Source: Candidatus Omnitrophota bacterium (GTDB lineage Bacteria; Omnitrophota; Gorgyraeia; Zapsychrales; Aceulaceae). From it: a stretch of 64,000 nt of DNA. The notes below the pieces were generated by a model that saw nothing but the letters and a program-made list of their open reading frames with translations, had not been told where the DNA came from and made no database searches. The position numbers and the translations under genes were made by a program. Of the stretch, positions 27,037 to 43,550 are shown piece after piece. The DNA is taken from positions 87,084-151,083 of the forward strand of contig JAKQPK010000023.1 of the NCBI GenBank assembly GCA_029564765.1, read 5' to 3'. Position 1 is the first letter of the stretch. Every line of letters starts with the position of its first letter.

Positions 27037-28341
27037 CTACCCCGTCTTCACTTGCCCTCTGCCTTGACAATAAGGACAAGGACTGAAAGACATGGATTGT
27101 ATTGTTTTTCCTGTGCGCGCCCTGGTCATTTCCAAAAGACCAAGCTGTGAGATACGCGTAAGCTCTGTTTTGGCGTGATCTTTCTCGAGCGCTTTTTCTA
27201 AGGCCTGCAAAACCTGCCGCTTGTGGCCTTCCCTGTTCATATCAATAAAATCGATGACAATAATACCACCTAAATCCCGTAAGCGCAACTGTCGCGCGAT
27301 CTCGGTCGCTGCCTCCATATTGACCATGAACGCCGCGTCTTCTGGAGAAGCATTGACCTTAAAACGGCCACTATTCACATCAACCACGGTCAATCCTTCA
27401 GTAGGTTCGATTACAACATAAGCGCCAGATTTTAAATAAACCTTGGTCTCATAGATCTTATTCAACTGCTTTGTGATATTCTTCGCCTCGAACAATGGCG
27501 CCTCACCGCGGTAATGCTGGATACGATTGATCATTTCATTTCCGATCAACGTAAAAACAAACTTGCGAATACGATGATAGGCTTCCTGAGAATCAACGAT
27601 AATGCTGTCAATATCATCACGTAGAAAATCTCGGACGATCCTCCAGACCAGATCATATTCCTTGTACAACAACGCGGGCGCCTGTTTTCCTTCTGACTGC
27701 TTACGGATCTTCTGCCAAATCTCATAGAGAAACTTGGCATCGCGGACAATTTCACGCTTACCCTTATCTAAGGCAACTGTTCTAATAATGAAGCCGCTGT
27801 TTTTCGCAAAATCTAGATCCTTCAAAAGCTCTCTCAGACGATGCCTCTCATCGCCTGTATCGATCCTCTTTGAAACACCTAGATGTTTGTCATAAGGCAT
27901 AAAAACAACAAACCGCCCAGGAAGGCTCACGTGAGAAGTAAGCCGAGCACCTTTTGTGCCAAAGGGCTCTTTAACGACTTGAACAATGATCTCATCCCCT
28001 TTAGATAATGCCGGAGGATGTTCTGATCTTTTTTTAGTCTCCTTCGGTTTTACCTGCGGGTTTAGGATCTTTTCAATAAATTTTCGAGGACCCGATAGCT
28101 CTTCTTCCACTAACGGATTGACTATATCGGTCAAATACAAAAATCCGTTCTTTTCTTGCCCGATGTTAACAAACGCCGCATTAATGGACGGCAAGATGGA
28201 TTCAACGCGCCCTTTATAAATATTGCCTAGCAGCGTTCCTTCGGACTCTCTTTCGATATAAAAATCTTCCAGCACGCCACTTTCTATAATAGCGACACGC
28301 GTCTCACCTTCTTTAATATTAACTAAGATTTCTTTGGACAT
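27037..28341 (-). CDS. rng: Ribonuclease E/G family endoribonuclease (RNase G-like, 434 aa)
   Basis: N-terminal S1 domain plus an RNase E/G catalytic core with a DNase I-like region and a C-terminal Cys pair. Rne/Rng family assigned by overall conserved-block similarity. Confidence 0.85.
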   Translation of the reverse strand: MSKEILVNIKEGETRVAIIESGVLEDFYIERESEGTLLGNIYKGRVESILPSINAAFVNIGQEKNGFLYLTDIVNPLVEEELSGPRKFIEKILNPQVKPKETKKRSEHPPALSKGDEIIVQVVKEPFGTKGARLTSHVSLPGRFVVFMPYDKHLGVSKRIDTGDERHRLRELLKDLDFAKNSGFIIRTVALDKGKREIVRDAKFLYEIWQKIRKQSEGKQAPALLYKEYDLVWRIVRDFLRDDIDSIIVDSQEAYHRIRKFVFTLIGNEMINRIQHYRGEAPLFEAKNITKQLNKIYETKVYLKSGAYVVIEPTEGLTVVDVNSGRFKVNASPEDAAFMVNMEAATEIARQLRLRDLGGIIVIDFIDMNREGHKRQVLQALEKALEKDHAKTELTRISQLGLLEMTRARTGKTIQSMSFSPCPYCQGRGQVKTG

Positions 28342-28349
28342 AGGATAGG

Positions 28350-29765
28350 TTATTTCTTCTTCTCGAACCGCTTCTCTGCAACGCCTAGTTGATCAGCGTC
28401 ATTGACCTTTTCTGGCTGAATCACATGTGGCGTAATAAAGATGATCAGTTCTGTTTTGGTTAGCGTTTTTTCGCTTTTTTGAAAGGCAAGACCCATGATA
28501 GGGATATCGCCAAAGAAAGGCACTTTCTTTTTTGTATCGTTCCACTGCTTCTTGATCAAACCCGCGATCACAAGTGTTTGGCCATCCTTGATCATAACTC
28601 GCGTCGATGCGGATTCCGTGCTTAGTCGCGGAACACTCGTAGACTCCACCTGCACATAATCTAAGATCGCTGTTACCTTAGGCTCAACCTCTAAGGTAAT
28701 ATATCCTAGCTTATTGACTTGTGGCGTGACCTCAAAAATAATGCCAATGTCCTTATACTCCCACCCAGAAACTTGTAATTTTGCCTGCTCTTCATTGTAT
28801 GTGTATTGAGGCAAGGGATACTGGGTGCCAACAACAATATTTGCCTTCTGATTATCAAGGGTCGTAATGCGCGGATTGGAAAGGATATCTGTCCCAGAGC
28901 GCGACTTCAGCAATTCCAGGACGGCCTGCATTTGAGAAAAATCCAAGACACCAAAAGTAAACAAATTTGTATCTGGCGTTGGGAAGTTCATGCCTGGGCC
29001 ACTTAAAAATTTATTAGAGGAATTTTCGGTGAACGGCCAATATGCCGGCCTTGCAGAACCTGAAGCGCCCGCTTTAAAAGTCCAATCAATACCCATATTT
29101 TCCGTGTTTGTCAGCGTCGTCTCAATGATCTTTGCTTCAATAAGGACCTGCGGCGTCGCGGCATCAAGACGCTCCACGACCTTAGCGACTACCTCTAAAT
29201 TGCTTGGTGTATCTCGCACGATCAGCACGTTCGTCCTTTTGTCAAAATTGACCGTACCCCGAGCTGTCAGCATCTTCTCTATTGAGCCAACGACTTGGGT
29301 CGCATCTGCATAATCTAAAATAAAGGTTTTTGTCATGACAGACTCTTGGTCTGCCAATATCAAATCATCTTCGCGCAGTTTCTTTAAGTTCTGAACCGTC
29401 GTAACGACAATAATGTTGCCGCGCTGATCATACCCATAACCATACGTCTTTAGGATCACATTGAGCGCGTCTTGCCAAGTCACATTCTTAAGCTTAATGG
29501 TCACTAACCCTTGAACATCAGGACTTGGAACAATATTGATCTTTGCCTTGTACGATAAGATTTCCAGGACATTGCGAATATCTGCGTTCTCAAAATCTAG
29601 AGTAACGCAGCCATCACAAACCGCCTCATGGGCATCAGAAGCTGTTTGGGCTGCCGCAGGCCCTGCGCTCTTCCCCGTAGTTGTATTCTCCTGCTGAGCT
29701 AAAAGCTGCTGGATCATGATCCCAAGACATAAGATACCAAAAATAGCAATAACATATTTCTTCAT
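28350..29765 (-). CDS. pilQ: Type IV pilus secretin PilQ (outer-membrane secretin family)
   Basis: Signal peptide, N0/N1-type domains (TFILDYADATQV...NVLIVRD) and a C-terminal secretin domain (VPFFGDIPIMGLAFQ...LIIFITPHVI). Confidence 0.88.
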   Translation of the reverse strand: MKKYVIAIFGILCLGIMIQQLLAQQENTTTGKSAGPAAAQTASDAHEAVCDGCVTLDFENADIRNVLEILSYKAKINIVPSPDVQGLVTIKLKNVTWQDALNVILKTYGYGYDQRGNIIVVTTVQNLKKLREDDLILADQESVMTKTFILDYADATQVVGSIEKMLTARGTVNFDKRTNVLIVRDTPSNLEVVAKVVERLDAATPQVLIEAKIIETTLTNTENMGIDWTFKAGASGSARPAYWPFTENSSNKFLSGPGMNFPTPDTNLFTFGVLDFSQMQAVLELLKSRSGTDILSNPRITTLDNQKANIVVGTQYPLPQYTYNEEQAKLQVSGWEYKDIGIIFEVTPQVNKLGYITLEVEPKVTAILDYVQVESTSVPRLSTESASTRVMIKDGQTLVIAGLIKKQWNDTKKKVPFFGDIPIMGLAFQKSEKTLTKTELIIFITPHVIQPEKVNDADQLGVAEKRFEKKK

Positions 29766-29768
29766 GCC

Positions 29769-30131
29769 TTACTCCTTTTTCAGGTTCAAGCTAAATTCCT
29801 GACCTTGTCGATACAGCGTAACTGAATCTTGATTCACCGCAGTGACCACAAAACCTCCAATACGGTCTTCGATCTTGACAACCCTGCTGTTGATGATCGC
29901 AAACCTCTCTCCGTCAGGGTCATAGATGACCCCCTCTAAAACCATGTCTGAAAATTGCAAGCTATCATCATAAGATAGGATCGCACCGCTAGATGATACC
30001 AATGGCCAAAATGGATCGCGCCGCCCATGAGAGTCATACATAAAATCTTCTTGCGCAATTGCAAGAGCGGCTGACAAAAACAAGGCCAGGGTCCCTATGG
30101 CTGCAATAAAAAATCGCTTCATCATGCTCAT
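29769..30131 (-). CDS. pilP: PilP-like pilus assembly lipoprotein/periplasmic protein
   Basis: 120 aa with a signal peptide and a C-terminal beta domain resembling the PilP/GspC HR domain. It occupies the pilP slot in pilMNOPQ order. Confidence 0.6.
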   Translation of the reverse strand: MSMMKRFFIAAIGTLALFLSAALAIAQEDFMYDSHGRRDPFWPLVSSSGAILSYDDSLQFSDMVLEGVIYDPDGERFAIINSRVVKIEDRIGGFVVTAVNQDSVTLYRQGQEFSLNLKKE

Positions 30132-30712
30132 TTCTTTTTTACAATAAAAACATTAACTGTAGCCGTGACAATATTCTTCTTAACAGAGCCGGCATCTTTC
30201 ATGATCTCAAAATTATCAATGCTCATAAACGTTTCATCATTTTCCAGCTTGTAAAAAAATGTGCCGATCTCATGGTATCCACCTTCCGCGCTTAAAGCGA
30301 TCGGTAATGAGAAATATTCGCCATGCTCATTACTCAAGACCCTTGTCTCTGCGTTATTTAAAGGTGCGATCTGGTTGATCCTGATCGAGGATTTAGCCGC
30401 CAGCCTGGAGATCTTGTCGATCATCATGATCGCTTCTTCCTTTGGCAGGATACTATTCTCAATCCTGCTTAGCTTATCCTTCAGATTGACTATCTCTTCG
30501 CGGAGAACCGGTAATCGCTGCAGATTGTCTTTTGTCTCCCTAACCCCTTGCGATGTCTCCACAATTTTCTTTCTAGTTGATGCAAGGGCTTGCAACTGAG
30601 GTCTCATGATCAAGAAAAAATCAACAATAACAATAAAAATGATCGCGAAACCTAGCAGGACATAGCTTAGCTGTCTGGTCATTTCTATTTTAGGAAGCAA
30701 TTGTTTATCCAT
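30128..30712 (-). CDS. pilO: PilO-like inner-membrane pilus assembly protein
   Basis: 194 aa with one N-terminal TM helix, a coiled-coil and a periplasmic domain. It occupies the pilO slot. Confidence 0.7.
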   Translation of the reverse strand: MDKQLLPKIEMTRQLSYVLLGFAIIFIVIVDFFLIMRPQLQALASTRKKIVETSQGVRETKDNLQRLPVLREEIVNLKDKLSRIENSILPKEEAIMMIDKISRLAAKSSIRINQIAPLNNAETRVLSNEHGEYFSLPIALSAEGGYHEIGTFFYKLENDETFMSIDNFEIMKDAGSVKKNIVTATVNVFIVKKK

Positions 30713-30713
30713 C

Positions 30714-31307
30714 TTACTTACCGCCTACTTGCAATCGAAGAACAAAATTAGCGATCTCTGTAGTGTTGACCCTGCGACGACCTGTAAAATTCATATCAGG
30801 GTCCTTCAATCCTTTCATGAACAACGAATTGCTACGTAAATTTGTACTGAACGTGTTGACGATATTCGCGTAGTCGCCTTTTTTGGAGACTACGCTTCCT
30901 TCCATGATAAAGTTTTCTTTTGTTAGCGTCATGCGCGCCAACCACGTTCCAGGCGTCATCGCATCACTAACCGCATTCAGCTTTTGGGACCACGAAAGTC
31001 GTTTTCCCGTAGTAACGCTTTCAATGGTCGAAATTTTCTGGCGCAAAACCTTCAACTCCGCCAACACAGCATTAACCTCGGTTCTCTGAGGACCAATGCC
31101 TGCGAGGGATACTTCAATAGCCTTGCACGTCCCCATTTGCACAAATATCGTTAATTGCAATACAATATTAACAATGAACAAAAATGCCAAGAAACCACCG
31201 ACAATACCTATAGAAATTTCCAGCGGAATAGCTTGGACCGCTCGATGGAAGAGTCGATATTTCTTTCGCTTAACAAGTTCTTCGGGGACAAGATTGATAT
31301 TAATCAT
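30714..31307 (-). CDS. pilN: PilN-like inner-membrane pilus assembly protein
   Basis: The N-terminus MININLVPEE matches the PilN INLLP motif, followed by a single TM helix. Confidence 0.75.
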   Translation of the reverse strand: MININLVPEELVKRKKYRLFHRAVQAIPLEISIGIVGGFLAFLFIVNIVLQLTIFVQMGTCKAIEVSLAGIGPQRTEVNAVLAELKVLRQKISTIESVTTGKRLSWSQKLNAVSDAMTPGTWLARMTLTKENFIMEGSVVSKKGDYANIVNTFSTNLRSNSLFMKGLKDPDMNFTGRRRVNTTEIANFVLRLQVGGK

Positions 31308-32391
31308 TTTTTGTCAATGCCAGTCCTAAAGCTACGCATAACTGATCAGCCTGCGCTAAAAAGTCTTGTTTATCAACGTTTCCTGAAAACTCCAAATCAG
31401 GGGACGGGGCCCAAGCCTGAACAGGAATCTCAAGTTCTTTGGTCAAGAAATCTTGAAGGCCCTGCAAGCGCGCTCCCTGTCCAGCTAGCAAAATCTTTAT
31501 AACGCGCGCCCCATCTTCTGAACTAAAATAATCGAAAGAAAGGCGGATCTCTGATACAAAATTCATTAAAACGGGATGACAGGCCTTTAGCACATCTTCC
31601 TGCTTATCTTGAGAGGAACATTTTATTTTTTCCGCTCCTTGAAAGTCCAAACTAAGCAAGCTCATGATCTTCTGGGTAAAATCTTTTCCTCCGATCGCGA
31701 TCTCTCTGGTAAAACGAGGACCATGGTCCCGGAAAATAATAATCGTCGACTTGGCCTCCCCAACGTCTAAAAAGGCAAAAGCTTCCTTTTTTACGCTAGC
31801 CGGCAAAGAAATTGATCGTGTTTCTTTTTGCCCTTCAATGACCGCATTCGCAGCAGCAATCGCATGTAAGCCTATAAAATTCGCTTGTAAACCAAGATTT
31901 GAGATCATCTGCAAGCGATCTTTAACGATGTCCTTTTTTGCTACTGCAACAAGAACCGACATCTTATTGTCTTTTATCTGGCCATCATCGATAATTTGGC
32001 AATCAATATAGATCTCATTGCTCGGGAAAGGAAAATATTTGTCAGACTCGATCAACAAAGAGTCTTTTAACTGCGTGACTGGCATGCGAGGCATTCGAAT
32101 GAAACGGATCAAGGTTCCCTGGCCTGCAAGTCCCGTAAAAACGTTTTTTGACTCACTATCAATCTTTTTCAAGAGATTCCGGACTGCTGAAAGGACATCC
32201 CGGTCATGTACAGGCTCTACAGCCCAATTCATGATCTTAACATTTTTACTAGTCCGGACAACCTCAACCGCCTTGCATTGATAATTGCCAATATCAAGAC
32301 CTATAGAGGTCTCCTGAGGTCCGACAGGGATGTATTTTCTGATTAAAGAAAAATACGTATCTATAATATTTTGAATTTTATGCTTAAACAT
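31300..32391 (-). CDS. pilM: Type IV pilus assembly ATPase-fold protein PilM (actin-like)
   Basis: 363 aa with an FtsA/actin-like fold. It starts the pilMNOPQ block downstream of the pilA terminator. Confidence 0.85.
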   Translation of the reverse strand: MFKHKIQNIIDTYFSLIRKYIPVGPQETSIGLDIGNYQCKAVEVVRTSKNVKIMNWAVEPVHDRDVLSAVRNLLKKIDSESKNVFTGLAGQGTLIRFIRMPRMPVTQLKDSLLIESDKYFPFPSNEIYIDCQIIDDGQIKDNKMSVLVAVAKKDIVKDRLQMISNLGLQANFIGLHAIAAANAVIEGQKETRSISLPASVKKEAFAFLDVGEAKSTIIIFRDHGPRFTREIAIGGKDFTQKIMSLLSLDFQGAEKIKCSSQDKQEDVLKACHPVLMNFVSEIRLSFDYFSSEDGARVIKILLAGQGARLQGLQDFLTKELEIPVQAWAPSPDLEFSGNVDKQDFLAQADQLCVALGLALTKND

Positions 32392-32496
32392 TTATTTAAT
32401 AAATATAATATTCTTATTATTTCTTATCTTATTATATTTGCTTTTACTCTCTAATCAAATATTAACTCATTTTTCTTTCTGTCCCAGAAAAACCTT

Positions 32497-32537
32497 AAAA
32501 AACAAAGAGGGCTTGGGATTTCATCCCAAGCCCTCTT
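32497..32537 (-). terminator. Rho-independent terminator downstream of pilA
   Basis: Perfect 15-bp stem (AAGAGGGCUUGGGAU / AUCCCAAGCCCUCUU) with a 3-nt loop, followed by UGUUUUUU on the minus strand. Confidence 0.8.
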
Positions 32538-32557
32538 CAAAAACCACACTTACAGCC

Positions 32558-32947
32558 TTATTGAGCTGTTAACACACCACCTGTTGTAATGGTATAGGTT
32601 GATGAACCTGTAACATTACGCGAGACAGGAGTAGCTGTCAACGTATACCCTGTAGTTGTAAATGTACAGGCGTATGAAAAACCTGACAAATTGCTTCCAC
32701 AGTACGCTGTGTTAAGATAAGGCGGTGTCGCATTCATAAGCGATGTTATTTGAGCTGGATAACTTCCGGTGTTCGCAGTGCCGTATGTTTCAGCTGCCGT
32801 AGAAATGGCGCGAAGAGTGCTCTGCGCTAAGCTATCGTTGGCTGAAAGTCTTGCGCGAAGCAAGTTCGGAATAGCGATCGCGGCTAACAACGCAATGATC
32901 GCAACAACGATCATGATTTCGACCAATGTAAAACCTTTTTTATTCAT
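32558..32947 (-). CDS. pilA: Type IVa major pilin (prepilin with class III signal peptide)
   Basis: MNKKG|FTLVEIMIVVAIIALLAAIAIP has a 5-aa leader, Gly-1, Phe+1 and Glu+5. A C-terminal Cys pair forms the D-region, and the C-terminal part is Thr/Ser/Gly-rich. Confidence 0.9.
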   Translation of the reverse strand: MNKKGFTLVEIMIVVAIIALLAAIAIPNLLRARLSANDSLAQSTLRAISTAAETYGTANTGSYPAQITSLMNATPPYLNTAYCGSNLSGFSYACTFTTTGYTLTATPVSRNVTGSSTYTITTGGVLTAQ

Positions 32948-33091
32948 TGTTCTCTCCTCCTTTCAGGATTCAGATTGAACATCTCTGAAAATCTGCCTCG
33001 CGAGAAGAGAATGAGCAGAATGTATGATGCCGTCGAAGGGATGACTCTTGCTCTGCGTGCTTTTTTTCAGGACAGTTCTAATCCTTTTTTT

Positions 33092-33120
33092 ATTTTACCT
33101 TCACCTCCTTTCATTGTCAA
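33092..33120 (-). promoter_or_regulatory. Candidate sigma70 promoter for pilA (-35 TTGACA, 17-nt spacer, -10 TAAAAT)
   Basis: Minus strand reads TTGACAatgaaaggaggtgaaggTAAAAT, about 140 nt upstream of the pilA ATG. Confidence 0.5.
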
Positions 33121-33216
33121 ACCTGTTTTAGCTTTTATTTCAAACACCCTTCAATGTAAGTATAGCACTTGAAGAAAAGAATTGACTGAAAAGATCGTGG
33201 AAAGGTTTTTGCAGGA

Positions 33217-34248
33217 CTATCTTTGGGTGAAGGTTTTCTCGAGGGATCTTTTCTGGCGATCCAAACTTTTGAGAAGGGCCTGAAGCCTGAGCGATTCCTT
33301 ATTAAGATCGTGATTTGCTTTCTGAAGATTATCGATATCAGATCGTAATAAAAGAATTGCCGGGCTCGCAGGGGCCTTGCGTATCGCTTGCCATTCTTTT
33401 CTTTTGGCGTTGAGCAATTCCTGAAGATCCTCGAGGACGGCCTGAGAGGCGACGAGAGTATCAGAGCCCTCATCAGACCCCTCCTTAGAAAAGGAGGCCG
33501 CGAGAATCTTTCCCTGCTTCTCAACAGCCGCTATTTTTTCTCTTGTACTCACCACTTCTGCTTTTAAATGTTGTCGGTCAAGGTTCGCACAGTTGTAAGC
33601 CAAATAACTATCAATGGCCTGTCGGCTAGCAGTTCTCACATCTTGCCCGAGTCGTTGCCATCCTTGATCCTGAGCGCTAAACCAAGCATCCACCCTACTT
33701 TGACCTTCATCAAGGTAGGCGTTTAGCTGCTGATCTTTTTGTTGGCGAGTAAAGAAACTTTTCTCAATGCCTTCAATGTCTTTCGTAGACTGAGATATGG
33801 TCTTTTGCAGCTCCCGGCTCAATTCTTTTTCCTTGTTAATAGAATTCGCAAGGCTCGCTTTCTCTTGGATCAGGGTCAAATATTTCTTATCAAGATTCCC
33901 AGATTGCTCAAGAAAAAACAGCATTTTCTCCTGGTGATCATTCAGCAAGGCTTCAAGTTCCCTTGATTGAGAGCTCAACAAAACAAGATCTGACAAAAAA
34001 CCATACGCCTGCTGATTTAAGTTCTGGATGGAAGTCTTAAGGCGCATATTCTCAGTTGAAAGCAAGGCATTTGTCCTCTGCAGATCCTTTGTGGCTTGAT
34101 CAAGAGCTTCTAGCCCATGATACCAGCGATCAGCCAGGCGAAAAGGGGCCTGTGCACTATCGAGAGGCTGAGCAAAAGCGCTGGATGCTGCTAGCCATGA
34201 TCCTATTAACAAAAAACAAATCAAACGCACGTTGATCCCTCGCTTCAT
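33217..34248 (-). CDS. Hypothetical secreted Gln/Leu-rich coiled-coil protein (343 aa) encoded inside the pilB-pilC-pilA region
   Basis: Signal peptide (…AASSAFA|QP), extensive heptad-like Q/L/K/E-rich sequence and an internal EGSDEGSD repeat. It starts 2 nt after the pilC stop. I recognise no family. Confidence 0.6.
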   Translation of the reverse strand: MKRGINVRLICFLLIGSWLAASSAFAQPLDSAQAPFRLADRWYHGLEALDQATKDLQRTNALLSTENMRLKTSIQNLNQQAYGFLSDLVLLSSQSRELEALLNDHQEKMLFFLEQSGNLDKKYLTLIQEKASLANSINKEKELSRELQKTISQSTKDIEGIEKSFFTRQQKDQQLNAYLDEGQSRVDAWFSAQDQGWQRLGQDVRTASRQAIDSYLAYNCANLDRQHLKAEVVSTREKIAAVEKQGKILAASFSKEGSDEGSDTLVASQAVLEDLQELLNAKRKEWQAIRKAPASPAILLLRSDIDNLQKANHDLNKESLRLQALLKSLDRQKRSLEKTFTQR

Positions 34249-34249
34249 A

Positions 34250-35458
34250 CTAACGGATAGCTGATGTTAAGCTAATGATCGGTAAAAATAACGCGATAAC
34301 GATGAACCCGACAACGATCCCCAGAAAACCAATGATCAAAGGTTCGATCATGCTGGTCAATCCAGCGACAGCCGCGTCAACTTGGTCCTCGTAGAATTCA
34401 GCGATCTTTGTCAACATGGTATCAAGTTTTCCTGTCTTCTCTCCGACGGAAATCATGCGTGTAACCATCTGCGGAAAAACACCGCTTTGGATCAACGGTT
34501 CAGAAATACTTTCTCCTTCTTGAATATGTTTTGCCGCATCCTCGACCGTTAGCTCAATAACACGGTTTCCAGAACTCTTCCCAACAATGTCCAACGCCGT
34601 TAAAATAGGCACGCCGCTTTGAATCAAGGTCGCCAATGTACGACTAAACCGGCTCAATGCAACCTTTTGGATCAGCGGCCCAAAGATAGGAAGTTTTAAG
34701 CTTATCCTATCTATCTGGAGGCTTCCAGCTTGAGTCTTTTTATAATTCACAAAAAAAACAAAACCAGCGATCCCTGCTAAGACCAACCATAAAAAGCTAG
34801 CCTTCAGATTATCGCTAATAAAAATAAGGATCTGCGTCATTCCCGGCAACTCTTTGCCTAAGGACTCGTAGATCCCCTTAAATGTTGGAACAACTTTTAC
34901 AAGCAAAAGCACTGTGATCAGAACCGCCATGGTGATGACAACGGCTGGATACACCATGGCAGACTTCACTTTGTTGCGAAGCTTTAGCGCTTTCTCCATA
35001 TAGCCAGCGATACGATCCAATAAAGCGCTCAAAGCCCCTCCTGTTTCTCCAGCCTTCACCATGCTGATAAATAAACTGTCAAAAACTCTTACGTGCTTGG
35101 AGAATGAAGCTGAGAGACTATTACCAACAGAAACATCTTCACGAACAGCGCTGATCACACTTTTAAAATATTTCTGGGTCACTTGCTCTTCCAGAGCTTC
35201 CAAGCTTTGCAAGATAGGGATCCCAGCATCGATCATCGTTGAGAGCTGTCGAGTAAAGATCACAAGGTCTTCTGATTTAACCTTTTCTTCGCCAACTGAA
35301 AAATCCTTCAAAGAAAAGCCCCGGTCTTCTTCAACTGAAATAATGATCAAGCTTCGCTTGCGTAACTCCTTAATGACAAGTTCCTTGCTTTCGGCCGTAA
35401 CTTTTCCAGTAACGGTCGTTGCGTTCTCGTCTTTTGCGATGTATTTGAATTTTGCCAT
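34250..35458 (-). CDS. pilC: Type IV pilus inner-membrane platform protein PilC (GspF family)
   Basis: 402 aa with duplicated GspF-type domains and three TM segments, downstream of the pilB ATPases. Confidence 0.9.
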   Translation of the reverse strand: MAKFKYIAKDENATTVTGKVTAESKELVIKELRKRSLIIISVEEDRGFSLKDFSVGEEKVKSEDLVIFTRQLSTMIDAGIPILQSLEALEEQVTQKYFKSVISAVREDVSVGNSLSASFSKHVRVFDSLFISMVKAGETGGALSALLDRIAGYMEKALKLRNKVKSAMVYPAVVITMAVLITVLLLVKVVPTFKGIYESLGKELPGMTQILIFISDNLKASFLWLVLAGIAGFVFFVNYKKTQAGSLQIDRISLKLPIFGPLIQKVALSRFSRTLATLIQSGVPILTALDIVGKSSGNRVIELTVEDAAKHIQEGESISEPLIQSGVFPQMVTRMISVGEKTGKLDTMLTKIAEFYEDQVDAAVAGLTSMIEPLIIGFLGIVVGFIVIALFLPIISLTSAIR

Positions 35459-35493
35459 TACATTTTTCTCCCTATTTTAAAAGCTGACGCTAA

Positions 35494-37200
35494 TCAATCT
35501 TCTGAGGTAACACGCAAAACCTCCTCGACTGTTGTCTTGCCGGACACAAGCTTTTCAACAGCGTCCTCCCACAAGGTTGTCATGCCTTTTTTCATTGCAT
35601 AATCTTTAATAGCCGATGACGATGTTCCTTTGATCAGCATTTCACGGACAGCCTCATCGACTTCTAGAACCTCTAAGATGCCCATACGGCCATAGTATCC
35701 GGTGTGACGACAAAAATCACAACCTTTCGCGGTAAACAATGCCGTTTCCGGCTTGATACGCGTCGCGAAACCTTTGAGAACATGATCAGGAATATCCGCG
35801 GGCTCTTTGCATTTAGGACAAAGTGTCCTGCACAAACGCTGCGCGCAAATCGCAATAACACTTGATGCAACCAAAAAAGATTCAACGCCCATATCCACAA
35901 GACGCGTTAAAGCGCCGGCTGCGTCATTAGTATGCAAAGTAGACAGGACAAGCTGTCCTGTTAAGGATGCCTTGATCGCAATATCTGCTGTTTCTGAGTC
36001 GCGGATCTCTCCCAGCATAACAACGTCAGGACTTTGACGCAAGATGGCACGCAACCCAGAAGCGAATGTCAAGCCAATGTCTGATTTGATCTGGATCTGA
36101 GTCAAGCCATCGACCAGATACTCAACAGGATCTTCAACGGTAATAATATTCTTATCCGGAGTATTCAACTGGCTTATGATCGAATAAAGTGTCGTTGATT
36201 TTCCGCTTCCCGTAGGACCGGTCACAAGGATCATGCCAAAAGGTCGCGCGATCGACTCCTTAAGTCTCTGGGCGGGCCCTGGAGAAAAACTTAGACCATC
36301 AAGCCCCATCGAAAGATTCATTTTGTCTAAAATACGGATAACCACTTTTTGTCCGTAGGTCGTCGGAAGAAGCGATACGCGAAAATCAACTTCGCGAGAT
36401 TGTAGGCGCATTTTAAAGCGTCCATCTTGGGGTATCTGCATCTCCGTAATGTCAACACCAGACATGATCTTGATACGAACGATGATGGCGTTCTGGTTCA
36501 CCTTAGGAATGCTCAAAACCTCCTGCAGAACTCCGTCAACCCGATAACGAACACGCGCATCCGATTCCGCGGGCTCGATGTGGATATCCGAAGCCCGCTG
36601 CTTAATGGCCTCACGGATGATCAGATCGACCATGCGCACAATAGGCGCCTGACCGCTTTCTTCCACATTGATCGCGGCGAACTCCTGAGCGCCTTTATCG
36701 TCTACGACTTGAAAATCTTCCGTATCAATGTCGCGGCTGACCTCAGCGACACTTTGGATGTCGGCTGAACCATAATATTCATCGATCGCTTGCGCGATCT
36801 TCGCATTTTCGCTCAAGACAACATCGACGTTCCTGCCTGTCAAAAGCTTTAGATCGTCAATGGCAAAAATATTAAACGGATCCGATAATGCAACGGTCAC
36901 GGTATTGCCCAACCTCGATATAGGGATGATATGATATTGTCGCGCGATTTTCTCAGAAATGATCTCTTTAAGATTAGGATCGATCTTATATTTTGCGAGA
37001 TTAATAGTCGGGATATTGAGCTCCCGAACCAAAAGGCTTAATAAGTCTTGCTCAGAGATCAGGCCTTTTTCAATAAACGCTTTTTCCAGGCTGATGGATC
37101 TCTTTTTGTGGAGCGTGACGGCCTCTTCTACATCTTTTTCTTTAATGTGATGCAGCTGTGCGAGCGCTTCAAAAACTTTTTCCTTGATCGTTTTGGCCAT
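35494..37200 (-). CDS. pilB: Type IV pilus assembly ATPase PilB (GspE family), 568 aa
   Basis: GspE N-terminal domain, Walker A GPTGSGKST, Asp/His boxes and a tetracysteine motif (CPKC...CDFC). Confidence 0.9.
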   Translation of the reverse strand: MAKTIKEKVFEALAQLHHIKEKDVEEAVTLHKKRSISLEKAFIEKGLISEQDLLSLLVRELNIPTINLAKYKIDPNLKEIISEKIARQYHIIPISRLGNTVTVALSDPFNIFAIDDLKLLTGRNVDVVLSENAKIAQAIDEYYGSADIQSVAEVSRDIDTEDFQVVDDKGAQEFAAINVEESGQAPIVRMVDLIIREAIKQRASDIHIEPAESDARVRYRVDGVLQEVLSIPKVNQNAIIVRIKIMSGVDITEMQIPQDGRFKMRLQSREVDFRVSLLPTTYGQKVVIRILDKMNLSMGLDGLSFSPGPAQRLKESIARPFGMILVTGPTGSGKSTTLYSIISQLNTPDKNIITVEDPVEYLVDGLTQIQIKSDIGLTFASGLRAILRQSPDVVMLGEIRDSETADIAIKASLTGQLVLSTLHTNDAAGALTRLVDMGVESFLVASSVIAICAQRLCRTLCPKCKEPADIPDHVLKGFATRIKPETALFTAKGCDFCRHTGYYGRMGILEVLEVDEAVREMLIKGTSSSAIKDYAMKKGMTTLWEDAVEKLVSGKTTVEEVLRVTSED

Positions 37201-37205
37201 TATTT

Positions 37206-38933
37206 CTATACTTTCTCATCTACGGCTGTCACCCGGACAACTTCTTCTATCGAGGTAAGTCCCACCGCGGCTTTTAACAAAGCATCTTCGCGCATTGTTA
37301 CCATACCTTCCTGTCGAGCCATTTCTTTTATCTTCATTTCCCCTGCATGGTCAAGGATCAGCTTTTTAACAGTGGGTGAAAGCAGCATGACCTCCGTTAT
37401 GCCCACCCGCCCTCGATATCCAAGATCGAAACAATGTCGGCACCCTTTGGCCTTAAAGAATGTTGGTTTATGTTCGAGCTTCATCGTTGAGAGGCCGAGC
37501 TTTTGGACTAAGTAATCTGGGACATCATAAGGCTCTTTGCATTTATCGCACAGCTTACGCAAAAGCCTCTGAGCAACAATGGACAAAACAGACGAACAAA
37601 TAAGAAAAGGCTCAATGCCCATATTCATCATACGAATAATGGACCCAGCGGCTGTTGTGGTATGCAGCGAACTTAAAACTAAGTGTCCCGTAAGGGCCGC
37701 CTTCACCGCCACGTCCAAAGTTTCAAAATCCCTGATCTCCCCGATCATGACAACATCAGGATCCTGGCGCAAGATCGCCCTTAAGGCTGAGGCAAAGGTC
37801 AGGTTGACCTGGGGCTTAATATTAACCTGATTGATCCCTTTCATCTGGTATTCGACCGGATCCTCAACCGTTACAATGTTCTTTTCGGTGGAGTCAATAA
37901 ACTTTAGAACAGAGTACAAGGTTGTTGTTTTCCCGCTTCCAGTCGGCCCGCAAGTCAGGATCATGCCGTGGGGTTTACGTGCGCATTCGCGTAAAACATC
38001 CAATGCTTTCGCGTTAAATCCTAATTTAGTCAGATCTAGCATAGCCGCGTTCTTATCTAAAACTCGCAAGACAACTTTTTCTCCAAAAGCTGTCGGCAGA
38101 ACGCTGACGCGGAAGTCAACCTCTCTCTTTCGGTCTGTCACAGCCTTGAAACGTCCGTCCTGAGGAAGGCGATGCTCAGAAATATCCAGATTGGACATGA
38201 TCTTGATACGGGAGACGACAGGAAAATGGAGCGTTTTTGACATCCGATCAACTTCGCGAATGATACCATCAACACGATAGCGAATGCGCAACGCTTTCTG
38301 TAAAGGCTCAACGAAAATATCGCTGGCTTTCGCAGCAATAGCCTGACGAATGATCGCATCCGTCAATCGGATCGTTGGCGCGTCCTCAGCCAAATTCTCG
38401 ATCTTCTCTTTGTCGATCTGCTTTTGACCTTCTTTGACAAGCTCCATCTCTTCCAAGCTTGAAATATCTTTCATAATATCTTCAAAGGCTTGCATTGCAT
38501 CTTCAGAATAAAAAATACCGATCGCCCTCTCGATCTCTTTAGCAGAAGCTGCAACGCCACATACCTTAAGACCTGTCAACGCATTAATATTGTCGATCGT
38601 TAGCACATCAGAAGGATTAGCCATAGCCAAAAAAAGCGTCCGGCCCAAACGAATAATAGGGACAACTTGATAATTAATGATCACGGATTTTGGCAGGATA
38701 TCAAGGACTTGCTTTTCAACTCTGGCATCAGCGATATCAAAAGATTGACGGCCGATTTTGTCAAGCATCGCTGAAACTAATTTGCTTTCTGAAACAGTAT
38801 CTGATTGAATAAGGATATCCATGAACAGAAGGTTGTCCGCTTCGGCGGTGGATACCGCGCGATCTAACGAAGCGTCATCTACGAGCTTTGCTTCCAGCAG
38901 AAAGCTTTTTAGATATTCAACGGGCGAGAACAT
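37206..38933 (-). CDS. Second full-length PilB/GspE-family secretion ATPase paralog (575 aa)
   Basis: GspE N-domain, Walker A GPTGSGKTTT, a conserved core and a tetracysteine motif (CDKC...CRHC). Tandem to pilB with a 5-nt gap. Confidence 0.88.
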   Translation of the reverse strand: MFSPVEYLKSFLLEAKLVDDASLDRAVSTAEADNLLFMDILIQSDTVSESKLVSAMLDKIGRQSFDIADARVEKQVLDILPKSVIINYQVVPIIRLGRTLFLAMANPSDVLTIDNINALTGLKVCGVAASAKEIERAIGIFYSEDAMQAFEDIMKDISSLEEMELVKEGQKQIDKEKIENLAEDAPTIRLTDAIIRQAIAAKASDIFVEPLQKALRIRYRVDGIIREVDRMSKTLHFPVVSRIKIMSNLDISEHRLPQDGRFKAVTDRKREVDFRVSVLPTAFGEKVVLRVLDKNAAMLDLTKLGFNAKALDVLRECARKPHGMILTCGPTGSGKTTTLYSVLKFIDSTEKNIVTVEDPVEYQMKGINQVNIKPQVNLTFASALRAILRQDPDVVMIGEIRDFETLDVAVKAALTGHLVLSSLHTTTAAGSIIRMMNMGIEPFLICSSVLSIVAQRLLRKLCDKCKEPYDVPDYLVQKLGLSTMKLEHKPTFFKAKGCRHCFDLGYRGRVGITEVMLLSPTVKKLILDHAGEMKIKEMARQEGMVTMREDALLKAAVGLTSIEEVVRVTAVDEKV

Positions 38934-38936
38934 ATA

Positions 38937-39380
38937 TTATCCATAATGTTTCTTGATAGCCGCGCGCACATCTGTCGCCGTGCTGACAAAAGCCTGAACG
39001 GAACAATGCGTCAGCGCCTCAACTTCTTCAATGGAGCCTGTATGCAAAGGATTGGCCATGGCCAAGGTCAAGCTAGCTCCGATCTTATCAATTGGTATCA
39101 GGCAATGCTGACGGCAGACGTCAGCAGAAACAGCTGACAAAACCTCGGGCTCTATCTCATAGTTGGATAACGGAAGATAAGGAAAACCGTACTGGGATGT
39201 CAAGGCCTGAGCAATATCCTCTTCCGAAGCGTACTTAAGGAACATCAGCGCCTCTCCCAGCAGGCCACCTTTCTCCTTCTGATACTCAATGGCTTCCTGC
39301 AACTGGTGGACATTGATCACTCCACGCTCTACAAGAAGATCCCCGATAAATTTTGGATTAATTCGCTTATATCCTTGCAT
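38937..39380 (-). CDS. Standalone T2SS-E N-terminal (MshEN-like) domain protein, 147 aa
   Basis: FIGDLLVERGVINVHQLQEAIEYQ and LLGEALMFLKYASEEDIAQALTSQ resemble the two tandem 24-residue MshEN motifs (xLGxxLLxxGLLxxxxLxxxLxxQ). It sits 3 nt upstream of the ATPase paralog. Confidence 0.7.
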   Translation of the reverse strand: MQGYKRINPKFIGDLLVERGVINVHQLQEAIEYQKEKGGLLGEALMFLKYASEEDIAQALTSQYGFPYLPLSNYEIEPEVLSAVSADVCRQHCLIPIDKIGASLTLAMANPLHTGSIEEVEALTHCSVQAFVSTATDVRAAIKKHYG

Positions 39381-39451
39381 AAGAAACCATATTGGTCTTT
39401 ATATTATCGCATGAATGGATTATTTTCATATAAAACATTAAAAATTTCAAA

Positions 39452-40558
39452 TCAAAACATTTTTCGCTGACGGGCCAAGCTCAACAAAAAACCAAACATC
39501 AAGATGCATACCAGAAAAGACGAACGTCCGTAGCTCACGAACGGCAAGGTGATCCCAACGATAGGACAAAGGCCCAGAACCATGCCAATATTGATGATAA
39601 CCTGAAGGGCAAAGATCGCAACGATGCCTGCCCCCGCCAAGTGGCTAAATTTTTCTTTAGTTTGCTCAACGGCGCGGAGCCCGGACAGGATCAACAGATA
39701 AAAACAAACAACGACAATAACGCTGCCGACAAAACCCCATTCTTCCCCGATCACGGAGAAAATAAAATCCGTATGTCGTTCTGGCAAGAAATTCAGCTGA
39801 TTTTGAGTCCCCGAAAGCCATCCTTTGCCAAAAATCTGACCAGATCCGATAGCGATCTTGGATTGAATAATGGTATAGCCAGCCCCTAATGGATCGACAT
39901 TGGGATTCAAGAAAACAAGCAATCGATCCTTTTGATAAGGCTTCATCATATGCCACAATATCGGCATCGCTAAAAGACACACGCCCAAGAACCCTCCCAA
40001 ATGCTTGGTAGAAACCCCTGCTGCAAAAGCCATAACAAAAAAGATCCCAACCAGCAAAATGGCCGTTCCAAGATCTGGTTGCTTAAAGATAAGGATCGCC
40101 GGAGCGGCCGTCATCGCGAAAGGAATAAAGAAATCAGAAACGATCGCCGGCCTTGACCATGGATTATAAAAGGAAACCTTGGGTTTATGGTCGGTATAAT
40201 AACGCGCCAACGCCAAGATCAAGGAAAGCTTCATAAACTCAGAGGGTTGAAAATTAAAACCAAAAATTTCGATCCATCGCTTTGCACCTAAAGCGTAGTA
40301 TCCGAAAAGAAAGATCGCGACCAGTAAAAAAACGTTGATGCCATAAGCAATATACGCAAGGTCATAGTATCTGCGATGGTCAACACGCCCTAAAAAAAAG
40401 ATCGCGACTACACCTAGAATAGAGAAAACGAGCTGATTATAAAATACTTCCTGTGTGACACGTGAATTCTGAAAAGAGGCGCTAAAAAGAGCAAGCAAGC
40501 CAGAAACGATGATGATCATAAGGCTAACCCACATGGCTTTTTTGAGATCTGATAGCAT
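39452..40558 (-). CDS. rodA: SEDS-family peptidoglycan glycosyltransferase RodA (FtsW/RodA/SpoVE family)
   Basis: 368 aa, polytopic. Adjacent to PBP2 and mreBCD, so assigned as RodA rather than FtsW. Confidence 0.85.
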   Translation of the reverse strand: MLSDLKKAMWVSLMIIIVSGLLALFSASFQNSRVTQEVFYNQLVFSILGVVAIFFLGRVDHRRYYDLAYIAYGINVFLLVAIFLFGYYALGAKRWIEIFGFNFQPSEFMKLSLILALARYYTDHKPKVSFYNPWSRPAIVSDFFIPFAMTAAPAILIFKQPDLGTAILLVGIFFVMAFAAGVSTKHLGGFLGVCLLAMPILWHMMKPYQKDRLLVFLNPNVDPLGAGYTIIQSKIAIGSGQIFGKGWLSGTQNQLNFLPERHTDFIFSVIGEEWGFVGSVIVVVCFYLLILSGLRAVEQTKEKFSHLAGAGIVAIFALQVIINIGMVLGLCPIVGITLPFVSYGRSSFLVCILMFGFLLSLARQRKMF

Positions 40559-42265
40559 CTAAAGGATTTCCAGGGCTTTCATTTCTTTAAGCAATTGCGC
40601 GCTAACACGGCACGCGTTATAACTAGATCCCCCATATTCTAAAAAAACACAGAATGCAATGCGTGTCTTTGCTGATGGGCAATATCCAACGAACCAGGCA
40701 TGATGTTCTTGATTCCCGGAAGACTGGGCTGTTCCTGTCTTGCCGAGAACGAGAAGGTCTTTCATGAAAACAGCGCGCGCCGTCCCTCCTTCGCCTGCGA
40801 CAGCCGCTCGCAAGCCCTCCTTAACTTGGTCTAAAATATTCTTCGGCAAATGAATAACGCGCGCTACTTGCCCCTGGGGTTGCGCATGGGCACCGATGGA
40901 TTGTGCGATATACGGTTGTATTTGGCGGCCATCTCGAGCAACGGTCGCGATCATGTTCACTATCTGGATCGGGGTCACCAAAAGATCACCTTGTCCAATA
41001 GAAAAATTGAGGGTGTCTCCCTTGCTCCATCGTCGAGCACGAAAACCATCTGGATGCGGAACATGGCCGCGTTCTTCATACGGCAGGTCGATCTTTGTAA
41101 AAACCCCTAACCCAAAAAGGCGGGCATACTCTTCCATCAGCTTAGGGCCAATGATAAGGCCTGTATTAAAAAAATAAACATTGCACGAATGACCAAGCCC
41201 CTGCGTAAAATCCTGAGCACCATGGGTATGGGAACAACGAAAGGCGCGATTTCCCAACGTATAAGACCCATGGCAAACAAAGGTCGTATGCGGATTGATC
41301 TTTTTTGTGTAAAGGCCAGCGATCGCTACCGGGATCTTGAACACAGACCCGGGAGGATACTGTCCCCGGATCGCCCGATTGAACAAGGGAGCGCGAGTAT
41401 CGGTAAAATATCGCACGCGATTGTTTGAGGCAGCCTCGCTCGCGAAATCATTAGGATCAAAGCTAGGCGCACTGACCATCCCCAGGATCGCCCCATCGTC
41501 TAAATTCATAACAATGATAACGCCTCGCTGCTCTCGCATCAGCGTCTGAGCTATCTGCTGGATACGCGCGTCAAGCGTGGTCATTACGTCTTCGCCTGGA
41601 TGAGCGACCTTCATACCTAAAACACGAACTTGCTGCCCTCGGTTATTCACCTCGATCTGAAGTCCACCATTGACACCTCTCAACATCTGATCATACTGCT
41701 CTTCGATGCCGGAATAGCCCATTACACCATCTATCGTGTAACCATATTCTTTAAGTCTTTCGATCCGTTCTTGGCTCATTTTAGCAACGTATCCTAGGAC
41801 ATGAGCCCCCGCTTCCCCAAAGGGATAATGCCTGCGAGATCGCACCTGAACGAGAAGGCCAGGAAAACGAAATTTATTCTCTTCTAAAATGATCGCTTTT
41901 TCCCGAGGAACATCCTCCGCGATCACAACAGGGGCGAACGATGCCGTTCTTTTTCTCTGATAGATCGCGTCTATCCTCCCTTGACCAAAGCCTAGGACGC
42001 TTCCCAAAAAAGAAAAGAGCTCATCTCTGTCCTGCAACTCTTGCGGGATGACCAAAACATCGAATGCGGCTAATGTATCAGCTAGGGCGATGCCGTTACG
42101 GTCCAGGATGCGCCCACGATTGGAATGCACGGGAACAACGCGGATACAATTGGAAACGCTCAATTGTTGATAGTATTCACCTTGAAAGATCTGAGTATAA
42201 CCCAAACCAACGATCAAGATGATAAAAGAGAATGTGATAATTACTTTGAAACTTTTAAGGCGCAT
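40559..42265 (-). CDS. mrdA: Penicillin-binding protein 2 (elongasome transpeptidase)
   Basis: 568 aa with an N-terminal TM helix, a PBP dimerisation domain and a transpeptidase domain containing the SVFK motif. Located next to rodA and mreD. Confidence 0.9.
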   Translation of the reverse strand: MRLKSFKVIITFSFIILIVGLGYTQIFQGEYYQQLSVSNCIRVVPVHSNRGRILDRNGIALADTLAAFDVLVIPQELQDRDELFSFLGSVLGFGQGRIDAIYQRKRTASFAPVVIAEDVPREKAIILEENKFRFPGLLVQVRSRRHYPFGEAGAHVLGYVAKMSQERIERLKEYGYTIDGVMGYSGIEEQYDQMLRGVNGGLQIEVNNRGQQVRVLGMKVAHPGEDVMTTLDARIQQIAQTLMREQRGVIIVMNLDDGAILGMVSAPSFDPNDFASEAASNNRVRYFTDTRAPLFNRAIRGQYPPGSVFKIPVAIAGLYTKKINPHTTFVCHGSYTLGNRAFRCSHTHGAQDFTQGLGHSCNVYFFNTGLIIGPKLMEEYARLFGLGVFTKIDLPYEERGHVPHPDGFRARRWSKGDTLNFSIGQGDLLVTPIQIVNMIATVARDGRQIQPYIAQSIGAHAQPQGQVARVIHLPKNILDQVKEGLRAAVAGEGGTARAVFMKDLLVLGKTGTAQSSGNQEHHAWFVGYCPSAKTRIAFCVFLEYGGSSYNACRVSAQLLKEMKALEIL

Positions 42266-42729
42266 TTTTTAAAGAAAAGGAACGCATAAGGTCCAATAGC
42301 CGTTGTTGTAATGATCTCTGGAATGGCCAGAAACCAAGCGATATCCCTAAATCCTCCCGAAGCGAAAAAAGCTGCTACAATATAAAGAATCGAAACATTT
42401 AAAGCGCTCAAAAAGAACGCAAGCGCAATCTTAAGATATAGAGCATCGATCTGAAAAATATATTTTTTAAGCAGCAAAACGATATAGGAAGAAATGATAA
42501 AAGAAAAAATATTAACGCCGAACACCCCTACCAAAAGACTGTCCTTAAGAAGCCCAGCTGCAACGGCAGCCCACAGACCATAACGCGAACCCCAGAACAG
42601 ATTGATAAAAATAACGAACAGGATCAGAAAGTTCGGCTTCACCCAGAAGCTGAAAACATGAAAAACACCTATCTCGATGAGAAAAAGCAGATAACAGCTT
42701 ATCAGGATCCATAAAGTTTTCTTGATCAT
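42241..42729 (-). CDS. mreD: Rod shape-determining protein MreD
   Basis: 162-aa polytopic membrane protein immediately after mreC. Confidence 0.7.
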   Translation of the reverse strand: MIKKTLWILISCYLLFLIEIGVFHVFSFWVKPNFLILFVIFINLFWGSRYGLWAAVAAGLLKDSLLVGVFGVNIFSFIISSYIVLLLKKYIFQIDALYLKIALAFFLSALNVSILYIVAAFFASGGFRDIAWFLAIPEIITTTAIGPYAFLFFKKCALKVSK

Positions 42730-42740
42730 AGGATATCTTA

Positions 42741-43526: not shown

Positions 43527-43550
43527 ATCAACTCACTACTCGTTATGCGA

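Follow-up and report, generated by a model that had tools for sequence, protein, structure and literature searches.

An exported coiled-coil protein encoded between pilC and pilA is a candidate clade-specific accessory of the type IVa pilus machine in Omnitrophota

A stretch of 64,000 nucleotides from a Candidatus Omnitrophota bacterium (GenBank assembly GCA_029564765.1, contig JAKQPK010000023.1, positions 87,084 to 151,083 of the forward strand), hereafter the window, carries a type IVa pilus (T4aP) gene cluster in which a gene for an exported coiled-coil protein lies between pilC and pilA. This gene and its product are here named X (33217..34230), and residue numbers refer to its 337-amino-acid (aa) form; all window features given below are on the minus strand. 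X is a member of a small and as yet undescribed family that is confined to the type IV pilus (T4P) clusters of one clade. The reading that we favour, at a probability of roughly 45%, is that X is a clade-specific structural accessory of the Omnitrophota T4aP machine, in the form of an exported, parallel-dimeric rod. The initial annotation of this DNA had already described a secreted coiled-coil protein embedded between pilC and pilA and co-transcribed with the pilus motor genes, a placement that was borne out by the occupation of the same slot in 11 related Omnitrophota loci.

An exhaustive HMMER profile search of 1.84 billion representative sequences returned 32 proteins at E <= 1e-3, about 25 of which were 320-352 aa long and collinear with X from end to end, while word-indexed searches recovered only X itself and two relatives. 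Gene contexts were compared among related loci with a PilC identity of at least 60% and readable sequence downstream of pilC. A genome scan with PilC assigned the window to Candidatus Omnitrophota; the window PilC was 96% identical to that of one metagenome-assembled genome (MAG), 80% to that of an Omnitrophota MAG and 75% to that of Ca. Aceula meridiana. All 11 loci in the set (L003, L004, L005, L007, L008, L009, L010, L011, L012, L013, and L015) had an open reading frame (ORF) encoding a signal peptide and pure coiled coil 2-50 nt after pilC, followed by a pilin gene wherever the contig reached that far. Short-form ORFs measured 307-348 aa, and the 403-aa ORF of L008 resembled a short form with an N-terminal extension. 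A sister group carried a long form of 565-571 aa in the same pilC-pilA slot (L009:7216-8913, L012:7209-8915, L013:7219-8916, and L015:7215-8930); these four proteins were 30-62% identical to one another and tightly conserved in length. The L010 copy, from about position 7200, looked like a long form but ran off the end of its contig. The family consists of two discrete length classes (~340 and ~570 aa), the long form having about 230 extra residues, and the N-terminus of the long form aligned to that of the short form (hhalign probability 96.5%, a figure to be taken with caution for coiled coils). X is a clade-specific insertion into a conserved cluster, and it is retained in every readable locus of the clade.

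More distant relatives, down to about 17% identity, were also found in pilus clusters in each of the six contigs that were looked up. The relatives P0016 and P0020 occurred in the order rodA-MshEN-pilB-pilB-MshEN-pilC-X-pilA-pilMNOPQ-RNase G, P0024 came directly after pilC, and P0013 lay ahead of the pilins. In one further relative, P0012 (L048:289-1695), X was fused to C-terminal TPR repeats, so that the protein comprised a signal peptide, a coiled coil, and a TPR part. The first 4 nt of its gene overlap the end of a gene that encodes a protein with the secretin C-terminal motif at its end, and downstream of the fusion gene come pilM and a pilA resembling that of the window. The TPR part had its best NCBIfam match to PilW (TIGR02521; 6.9e-16, 58.5 bits against a cut-off of 154), with YbgF at 1.1e-4 (TIGR02795; 22.8 bits against a cut-off of 90.1). 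L048 is a rearranged cluster, and the fusion possibly provides a "Rosetta stone" hint that links X with a TPR or secretin partner.

The protein starts with M-R, a 13-residue hydrophobic core (the LICFLLIGSWLAA stretch) and SSAFA ahead of QP. Hydropathy delimited a Sec signal peptide at residues 1-20 (MRLICFLLIGSWLAASSAFA; 34171..34230), for which cleavage is predicted at an A-x-A site before Q21. This site and the Gln after it are kept across the family (Q21 in 78% of members), and the family consensus at the cleavage position is A-Q with no Cys, i.e., no lipobox was seen in the alignment. The signal peptide claimed by the initial annotation is therefore of textbook Sec type. The near-total heptad character that had been claimed also held: 71% of residues belonged to 28-residue windows in which the a/d hydrophobic periodicity was strong, whereas 30 shuffles gave a mean of 11% and a maximum of 23%, and the positional homologues behaved in the same way in the heptad scan. 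Mature X would have about 317 residues, of which about 310 form heptad-repeat helix, and would measure about 45 nm if fully extended. A single-chain AlphaFold2 model, built with a 20-sequence alignment (pLDDT, the predicted local distance difference test score, 82.9), placed a continuous helix at residues 31-249 (~33 nm, pLDDT >90). After the linker at residues 250-257, two further helices followed at 258-285 and 290-336, separated by a break at 286-289 (APASP). Confidence was low over residues 1-28, and no beta strand was present anywhere in the model.

Two compositional features that had been singled out in X proved to be less distinctive than described. The protein had been called Gln-rich, and its Gln content of 9.5% was indeed the highest among 53 window ORFs (the other 52: mean 3.7%, sd 1.5, maximum 8.4%), but this is a moderate enrichment that both Leu (15%, the dominant residue) and Ala (10%) exceed. 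Likewise, the EGSDEGSD repeat is present (33460..33483; residues 250-257), but it amounts to a single duplication of four residues, located where the family alignment is richest in indels, and forms an acidic Gly/Ser linker that is predicted to be disordered (pLDDT <50), is variable in length, and is not conserved, with ETGADTDPDD in its place in the 61%-identical homologue. Other members of the family show weak Gly/Pro hot spots around residues 173-179 and 205-211, which prompted the idea of an intramolecular antiparallel hairpin, with its turn around residue 175 or at the EGSD linker. Such a fold is not favoured because the model keeps 31-249 as one helix with pLDDT >90, an argument that holds within the limits of single-chain models.

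The family signature was derived from 23 short-form members; three of these are closer relatives of the window protein, and the others share 15-25% identity with it. Constraint along X was uneven, with residues 31-65 and the C-terminal ~40 residues conserved and the centre free, and the length of full-length members was held at 339 ± 10 aa (n=21). Alignments and heptad register delimited a conserved N-terminal module (34006..34137; residues 32-75), which opens with an L-x-D-x-W motif (W36 conserved in 73% of the family) and continues as a leucine zipper. It is followed by the variable part of the rod (33484..34005; residues 76-249, within the helix 31-249), in which the heptads are kept and the sequence is free. 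A conserved C-terminal leucine zipper (33220..33363; residues 290-337) comes after the helix break APASP at 285-289, and residues 284-291 are the most conserved helix break of the family. The sole invariant columns were N54 and N306, both at heptad position a. N61, also at a, was conserved in 87% of members, and the flanking d positions L43, L50, L57, L64, L71, L309, and L316 were Leu in 70-96% (96% for L309 and L316). The two ends resemble each other in their N-x-x-L...(E)N-x-x-L motif, which in each case includes an invariant Asn predicted to be buried, and the last 23 residues of X were identical to those of the 61%-identical orthologue.

This pattern bears on the likely oligomeric state. 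Harbury and colleagues are reported to have found in 1993, for GCN4, that the combination of Leu at d and a buried Asn at a directs the formation of parallel dimers in register. The two ends of X match it, with Leu at d, beta-branched or small residues at a, and Asn at a, and by these GCN4-type rules mature X would form a parallel, in-register homodimer. The resemblance to bZIP/GCN4 zippers, i.e., Leu at d and the invariant Asn at a, is structural only: unlike those proteins, X has no basic DNA-binding region and is predicted to be extracytoplasmic.

Selection was assessed against the fully syntenic orthologous locus L001 (GCA_964486675.1) over 335 aligned codons. The nonsynonymous divergence (dN) of X was 0.244 and its synonymous divergence (dS) 1.10, similar to the dS of neighbouring genes, giving a dN/dS of 0.22. 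Judged by this ratio, X is a real gene under purifying selection. In the neighbours, dN ranged from 0.006 to 0.086 and dN/dS from 0.009 to 0.082, so that the dN of X is 3-40 times higher, and overall the protein diverges roughly tenfold faster than those of the neighbours. X is the fastest-evolving protein of the locus, with 61% identity where PilC has 96%.

Comparisons with known families were made with X and 20 relatives in Pfam, NCBIfam, and PHROGs, and yielded only scattered sub-threshold coiled-coil matches (DivIC, SMC, CENP-F, ZapB, Filament, and the like), no Pfam family being common to more than three of the 20 relatives. A PDB sequence profile search gave only generic matches (myosin, tropomyosin, GCN4, spectrin, and crescentin); the match to 8qox_B, a "Conserved membrane protein", had an E of 2e-6 and covered zipper columns only. 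A Foldseek search of the first X model against the PDB reached a best E of 0.037, mostly to antiparallel coiled-coil hairpins. The remote-homology check that the initial annotation had proposed thus returned nothing above generic coiled coil in the sequence libraries, the PDB sequences, or the PDB folds. No prepilin motif and no pilus-model match (PilA/B/C/M/N/O/P/Q, PilT, and minor pilins) were seen in X, in line with the earlier view that no canonical T4aP component has this architecture, and no description of X was found by searching the Omnitrophota and T4P literature.

Several named families were considered individually and rejected. A match to an unrelated family such as the OmpH/Skp chaperones had been put forward as grounds for abandoning the pilus connection, and none appeared. 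OmpH/Skp proteins have about 160 aa and a beta-barrel trimerisation core with helical arms; no OmpH match was obtained for X even to E 10, nor in the 20 relatives, and the AlphaFold2 model is strandless. SMC proteins combine an N- and C-terminal ABC-type ATPase head with a hinge domain. P0016 and P0020 carry the automatic IMG label "chromosome segregation ATPase", but with the SMC model (TIGR02168) X scored 15.7 bits against a cut-off of 567, over coiled-coil columns only, and X is a protein of 337 aa with a signal peptide. DivIC/FtsB proteins have a bitopic membrane anchor and a short zipper; the DivIC model scored 14.9 against 28.9 bits (E 0.024) at residues 43-82 of X only, the signal peptide of X is predicted to be cleavable, and there is no division-gene context. 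Another relative, P0008, carries the automatic IMG label "Lpp". X is like Lpp in being exported and purely coiled-coil, with a length that could set a distance. Lpp, however, is a trimeric lipoprotein of about 56-58 residues with a lipobox Cys and a C-terminal Lys linked to peptidoglycan, whereas X has a mature length of ~317 aa, a dimer-type a/d pattern, no lipobox Cys, and no conserved C-terminal Lys. Attachment to peptidoglycan through such a Lys was likewise rejected, as the family termini are basic but not conserved and X ends in ...KTFTQR. On these match patterns, the names "Lpp" and "chromosome segregation ATPase" on X relatives are automatic coiled-coil artefacts.

The comparison with envelope helper proteins gave a mixed picture. 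CpoB/YbgF shares with X the signal peptide and coiled coil, and P0012 reproduces the CpoB layout with its C-terminal TPR, but X itself has no TPR, its coiled coil spans about 300 residues instead of about 70, and its neighbours are pil and not tol-pal genes. P0012 also resembles the pilotins, in that its TPR part scores best against PilW and its gene follows that of the secretin, where a pilotin-like helper would be expected. X is not a TPR pilotin of the PilW/PilF/Tgl kind: those are lipoproteins, and X has neither a TPR domain nor a lipobox; the TPR-family scores were far below their cut-offs. No LysM match (FimV/TsaP-type) was obtained in X or the 20 relatives, and the Pfam scan of X matched no LytM, LysM, or OmpA-like domain. 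Among known machine parts, X is most readily set beside PilN/PilO (GspL/GspM in type II secretion), which have dimeric coiled-coil segments in the periplasm, as X would, and like X are encoded in the pilus cluster and presumed to be structural and not enzymatic. Each of the two is a bitopic protein of the inner membrane in which a short coiled coil is joined to a globular, ferredoxin-like domain. X, in contrast, has a predicted cleavable signal peptide, no membrane anchor or globular domain, and no PilN, PilO, or T2SSM match at threshold.

The position of X relative to its neighbours indicates with which genes it is expressed. As the initial annotation stated, an ORF of 343 aa occupies exactly 33217..34248; it is read from an ATG and lies on the minus strand, and its length is probably overstated. 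Two in-frame starts are available, the non-conserved ATG at 34248 and a GTG at 34230, six codons further downstream, from which the coding sequence (33217..34230, stop codon 33217-33219) gives 337 aa. The GTG is the likelier and conserved start, and the product most likely has 337 aa, because a Shine-Dalgarno-like GAGGGA (34236..34241) lies 5 nt upstream of it, the JGI gene call (P0001) uses it, and it is the sole start usable in the closest homologue. That homologue has ATT at the position of the ATG. In a start-codon comparison with L007, L003, and L005, a G-rich block was seen in L007 where X has GAGGGA. The pilC stop codon TAG occupies 34252-34250 and the ATG 34248-34246, 1 nt past the last stop base; the GAGGGA falls inside the 19-nt gap between that stop and the GTG, so that the gap to pilC is at most 19 nt whichever start is used; the gaps in orthologous loci measured 2-35 nt. 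By this spacing X is operonic with pilC, which upholds the co-transcription that had been proposed. A second ORF on the same strand (33135..33524; 129 aa) begins with TTG and runs across the 3' third of X in a different frame; with its Arg/Pro/Ser-rich translation, it was rejected as an out-of-frame artefact.

Downstream of X, no terminator-like site was detected by pattern scan in the spacer that separates it from pilA (32948-33216; 270 nt, ~230-450 nt in related loci). This spacer holds the best sigma-70-like promoter match of the region (33092..33120; TTGACA, 17-nt spacer, TAAAAT, 11 of 12 positions matching). This suggests that pilA has its own promoter and that X is the last gene of a pilB-pilB-pilC-X unit.

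Under the reading that we favour, X would be exported and cleaved, and the mature protein would consist of a ~33-nm rod (residues 31-249) followed by an acidic linker that is flexible and by a C-terminal zipper on a hinge. Partners would dock at the conserved zippers of both ends, with the variable rod serving as a spacer of fixed length. X would most likely bridge or brace parts of the machine that span the envelope, one end contacting PilP or the coiled coils of PilN/PilO and the opposite end the secretin or a factor resembling a pilotin. X is more readily seen as part of the machine than of the fibre because it is expressed with the platform protein and the ATPases and not from the pilin promoter, and one of its ends may lie near the secretin or a pilotin because the TPR-fused P0012 adjoins a secretin gene.

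A number of points weigh against this proposal. The partners of X, its oligomeric state, and its retention in the periplasm are all putative, and the fast divergence of X is also compatible with secretion or with exposure at the surface. With 33 nm for the main helix, ~45 nm in total, and ~80 nm for the long form, the rod exceeds the width of a typical periplasm, and a simple strut from inner to outer membrane is therefore unlikely unless X lies obliquely, lies in plane, or folds back. The periplasmic scaffold or envelope-spanning alignment factor suggested in the initial annotation would accordingly fit only in part. The promoter ahead of pilA is a consensus match only, and the region held four sigma-70-like sites where 3.7 were expected by chance. 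Profile comparisons of coiled coils easily yield artefacts of composition, and the homology assigned to the long form and to the most distant members rests partly on shared position and architecture. Finally, X is absent from L014 and L017, two distant Omnitrophota loci (PilC 47-49% identical) that are otherwise syntenic: both keep MshEN-pilB-pilB-pilC with pilins directly after pilC, and L014 also has pilM, pilO, pilP, and pilQ further downstream. The check for conservation at the same position thus succeeded in the 11 related loci and in the distant relatives, which lie in pilus clusters, and failed in these two. The link to pili itself is strongly supported by a gene order that is kept over deep divergence. 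X was also absent from all non-Omnitrophota loci in the PilC genome scan. Because of these absences, X is to be regarded as a clade-specific accessory and not a general machine part, and the machine in general does not need it.

A more specific version of the proposed accessory role is that X represents a new class of T4P periplasmic "ruler or brace" that exists in two length classes and is docked or joined head to tail through its Asn-bearing zipper ends, which we consider speculative and improbable. As a ruler or brace, X would connect the inner-membrane platform to the secretin or pilotin, or its dimers would form an intermediate-filament-like ring or cage around the machine, and it might compensate for a short PilQ (471 aa). 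No AMIN domain was seen in the model scans of PilQ; TsaP and FimV were not searched for.

Alternatively, X could be a substrate or passenger of the machine, i.e., a dimeric rod that passes through the PilQ secretin or is displayed on the surface or on the pilus as a fibrillar adhesin or host-contact factor, by analogy with TcpF and CofJ in type IVb (T4b) pilus operons or with M-protein-like coiled-coil fibrils. We consider this unlikely, although likelier than the alternatives that follow. X has a Sec signal peptide without membrane anchor or lipobox, it is encoded within the pilus cluster and adjoins the pilin gene, and it evolves faster than any other protein of the locus, as exposed proteins typically do. 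Rod lengths of 337 and ~570 aa also exceed the usual periplasm. T4a pili are common in all Omnitrophota classes and have been proposed to mediate host attachment, with no X-like component mentioned (PMC10066038). On the other hand, X is without a globular, adhesive, or enzymatic domain, what is conserved in it is both zipper ends and the total length instead of a tip, and its gene is expressed with pilC and the ATPases while a promoter-like site separates pilA. Moreover, the TPR-fused relative beside the secretin resembles periplasmic pilotin or scaffold proteins. To our knowledge, the proteins known to be secreted by T4P belong to T4b systems and are globular, which counts against a passenger role. 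TcpF of the Vibrio cholerae toxin-coregulated pilus and CofJ of CFA/III in enterotoxigenic Escherichia coli do share with X a Sec signal peptide, the lack of an anchor, and a gene in the pilus cluster, but they are globular proteins of T4b systems, whereas X, whose secretion is hypothetical, consists entirely of coiled coil and is encoded in a cluster of the T4a type.

It is improbable, in our view, that X is instead a general coiled coil of the envelope whose only tie to the pilus genes is a common operon. In the style of Lpp, CpoB/YbgF, or EnvC, it would then be a periplasmic spacer or tether, or would coordinate peptidoglycan remodelling. Such a role would suit the genomic setting, in which the pilus cluster always follows rodA in the clade and lies directly downstream of mreBCD-pbp2-rodA. 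The CpoB-like layout of the P0012 fusion and the IMG label "Lpp" on P0008 point the same way, and a conserved length fits a spacer that sets a distance. However, X always lies inside the pil block, three or four genes away from rodA, and in the rearranged L048 it stays with the secretin, pilM, and pilA and not with rodA. X also carries none of the features expected of such proteins (no lipobox Cys, LytM, LysM, or OmpA-like domain or conserved C-terminal Lys), and the TPR part of P0012 prefers PilW (6.9e-16) over YbgF (1.1e-4).

Still more doubtful is the idea that X dimers polymerise head to tail through their zipper ends into a periplasmic filament, ring, or cage in the manner of intermediate filaments or crescentin. 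Conserved ends, a variable centre, and a conserved length are the pattern of intermediate-filament rods, the two ends share the N-x-x-L...(E)N-x-x-L motif with its invariant Asn, and a few members weakly match the Filament, Rod_CreS, and Tropomyosin models. Those matches recur in no more than 3 of 20 members and are what any long coiled coil would typically give, and the argument depends on a likeness of pattern, the conserved ends being equally well explained by docking to other proteins. Lastly, although X has no database family and is of low-complexity composition, the possibility that its ORF is a chance or decaying frame in the pilC-pilA spacer is effectively refuted by selection and conservation: the 335 aligned codons give a dN/dS of 0.22, more than 20 lineages at 15-25% identity share the frame, the length, the signal peptide, and the invariant residues, and there are a Shine-Dalgarno sequence and a conserved start.

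The remainder of the cluster is a recognisable T4aP locus. From 5' to 3' on the minus strand, the gene order was mreB, mreC, mreD, PBP2, rodA, MshEN, pilB, pilB, pilC, and X, then, after the 270-nt gap, pilA, a strong terminator, pilM, a PilN-sized ORF, pilO, a PilP-like ORF, and pilQ, and finally RNase G, rplU, obg, proB, and proA. Pfam and NCBIfam identified PilC, two PilB-like ATPases, a stand-alone MshEN protein, PilA, PilM, PilO, and PilQ. The platform protein gene pilC (34250..35458), immediately upstream of X, matched T2SSF at 7e-66 and PilC-family NCBIfam models at about 1e-120. The two PilB-like ATPases (37206-38933 and 35494-37200) are full-length, stand in tandem, and each have an N-terminal MshEN domain. 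The stand-alone MshEN protein (38937-39380; 147 aa) scored 60.5 bits against a cut-off of 38 with the model of a motif that binds cyclic di-GMP. The trio of two pilB genes and the stand-alone MshEN gene (35494-39380) was kept in related Omnitrophota loci where that region was readable, and a second stand-alone MshEN gene lay between the second pilB and pilC in several of them (L008, L011, L049, and L051). No retraction ATPase of the PilT type was seen in the scanned parts of the window (~23-52 kb). L014 and L017 had a short PilB-like match upstream.

On the other side of X, the major pilin gene pilA (32558..32947) matched N_methyl and pilin models, and a terminator scan placed an intrinsic terminator with a 17-bp stem after it (32503-32539). 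The ORF in the position of PilN (30714-31307) was assigned by position, size, and an N-terminal hydrophobic segment; it reached no PilN model and had a weak TamB match only. It is followed by pilO (30128-30712; Pfam/NCBIfam match) and by the ORF in the position of PilP (29769-30131), assigned in the same manner, with T2SSB at 28.2 bits against a cut-off of 28.4 and weak T2SSC and CdsD_C matches. The statement of the initial annotation that the other pilus parts are all encoded separately was thus confirmed by models for PilC, the ATPases, PilA, PilM, PilO, and PilQ, while PilN is placed by position and PilP stayed below threshold.

The T4aP cluster as a whole (27037-44624) is wedged between mreBCD-pbp2-rodA and rng-rplU-obg-proBA. 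This order was kept in L001, L003-L005, L009, L012, L013, L015, and L049, with PilC down to about 60% identity, which is an unusually stable linkage. All genuine-looking ORFs of at least 150 aa were on the minus strand over the full 64 kb, i.e., they were strictly co-directional. The co-directional stretch includes the pilus cluster, ileS, lgt, and lspA, together with putative genes for rpoB/rpoC, EF-G, and EF-Tu that were assigned by size only. A second coiled-coil ORF of almost the size of X (45988-47022) precedes aroA and mreB. Its 344-aa translation combines an internal hydrophobic segment (FTIFLIVFFLMLLSLTSIVTFFLV) with a long coiled coil and a small domain at the C-terminus; Pfam gave no match, and NCBIfam gave only coiled-coil noise of the SMC/EzrA kind. 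As the start of the ORF overlaps a neighbouring pseudouridine synthase ORF, translation probably begins further downstream.

Few bacterial machines have been mapped as well as T4P, whose list of parts is usually taken to be complete. The significance of X is limited in that its function is predicted, the family is small and confined to one clade, and extra accessories in pilus clusters are not unusual. The family signature can nevertheless be used to correct the labels "Lpp" and "chromosome segregation ATPase" where they have been attached to X relatives. Omnitrophota are uncultivated and often ultra-small, dependence on a host has been proposed for them, and T4a pili are their proposed attachment organelle (PMC10066038). 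X is a candidate for a lineage-specific adaptation of the pilus machine or of host contact.

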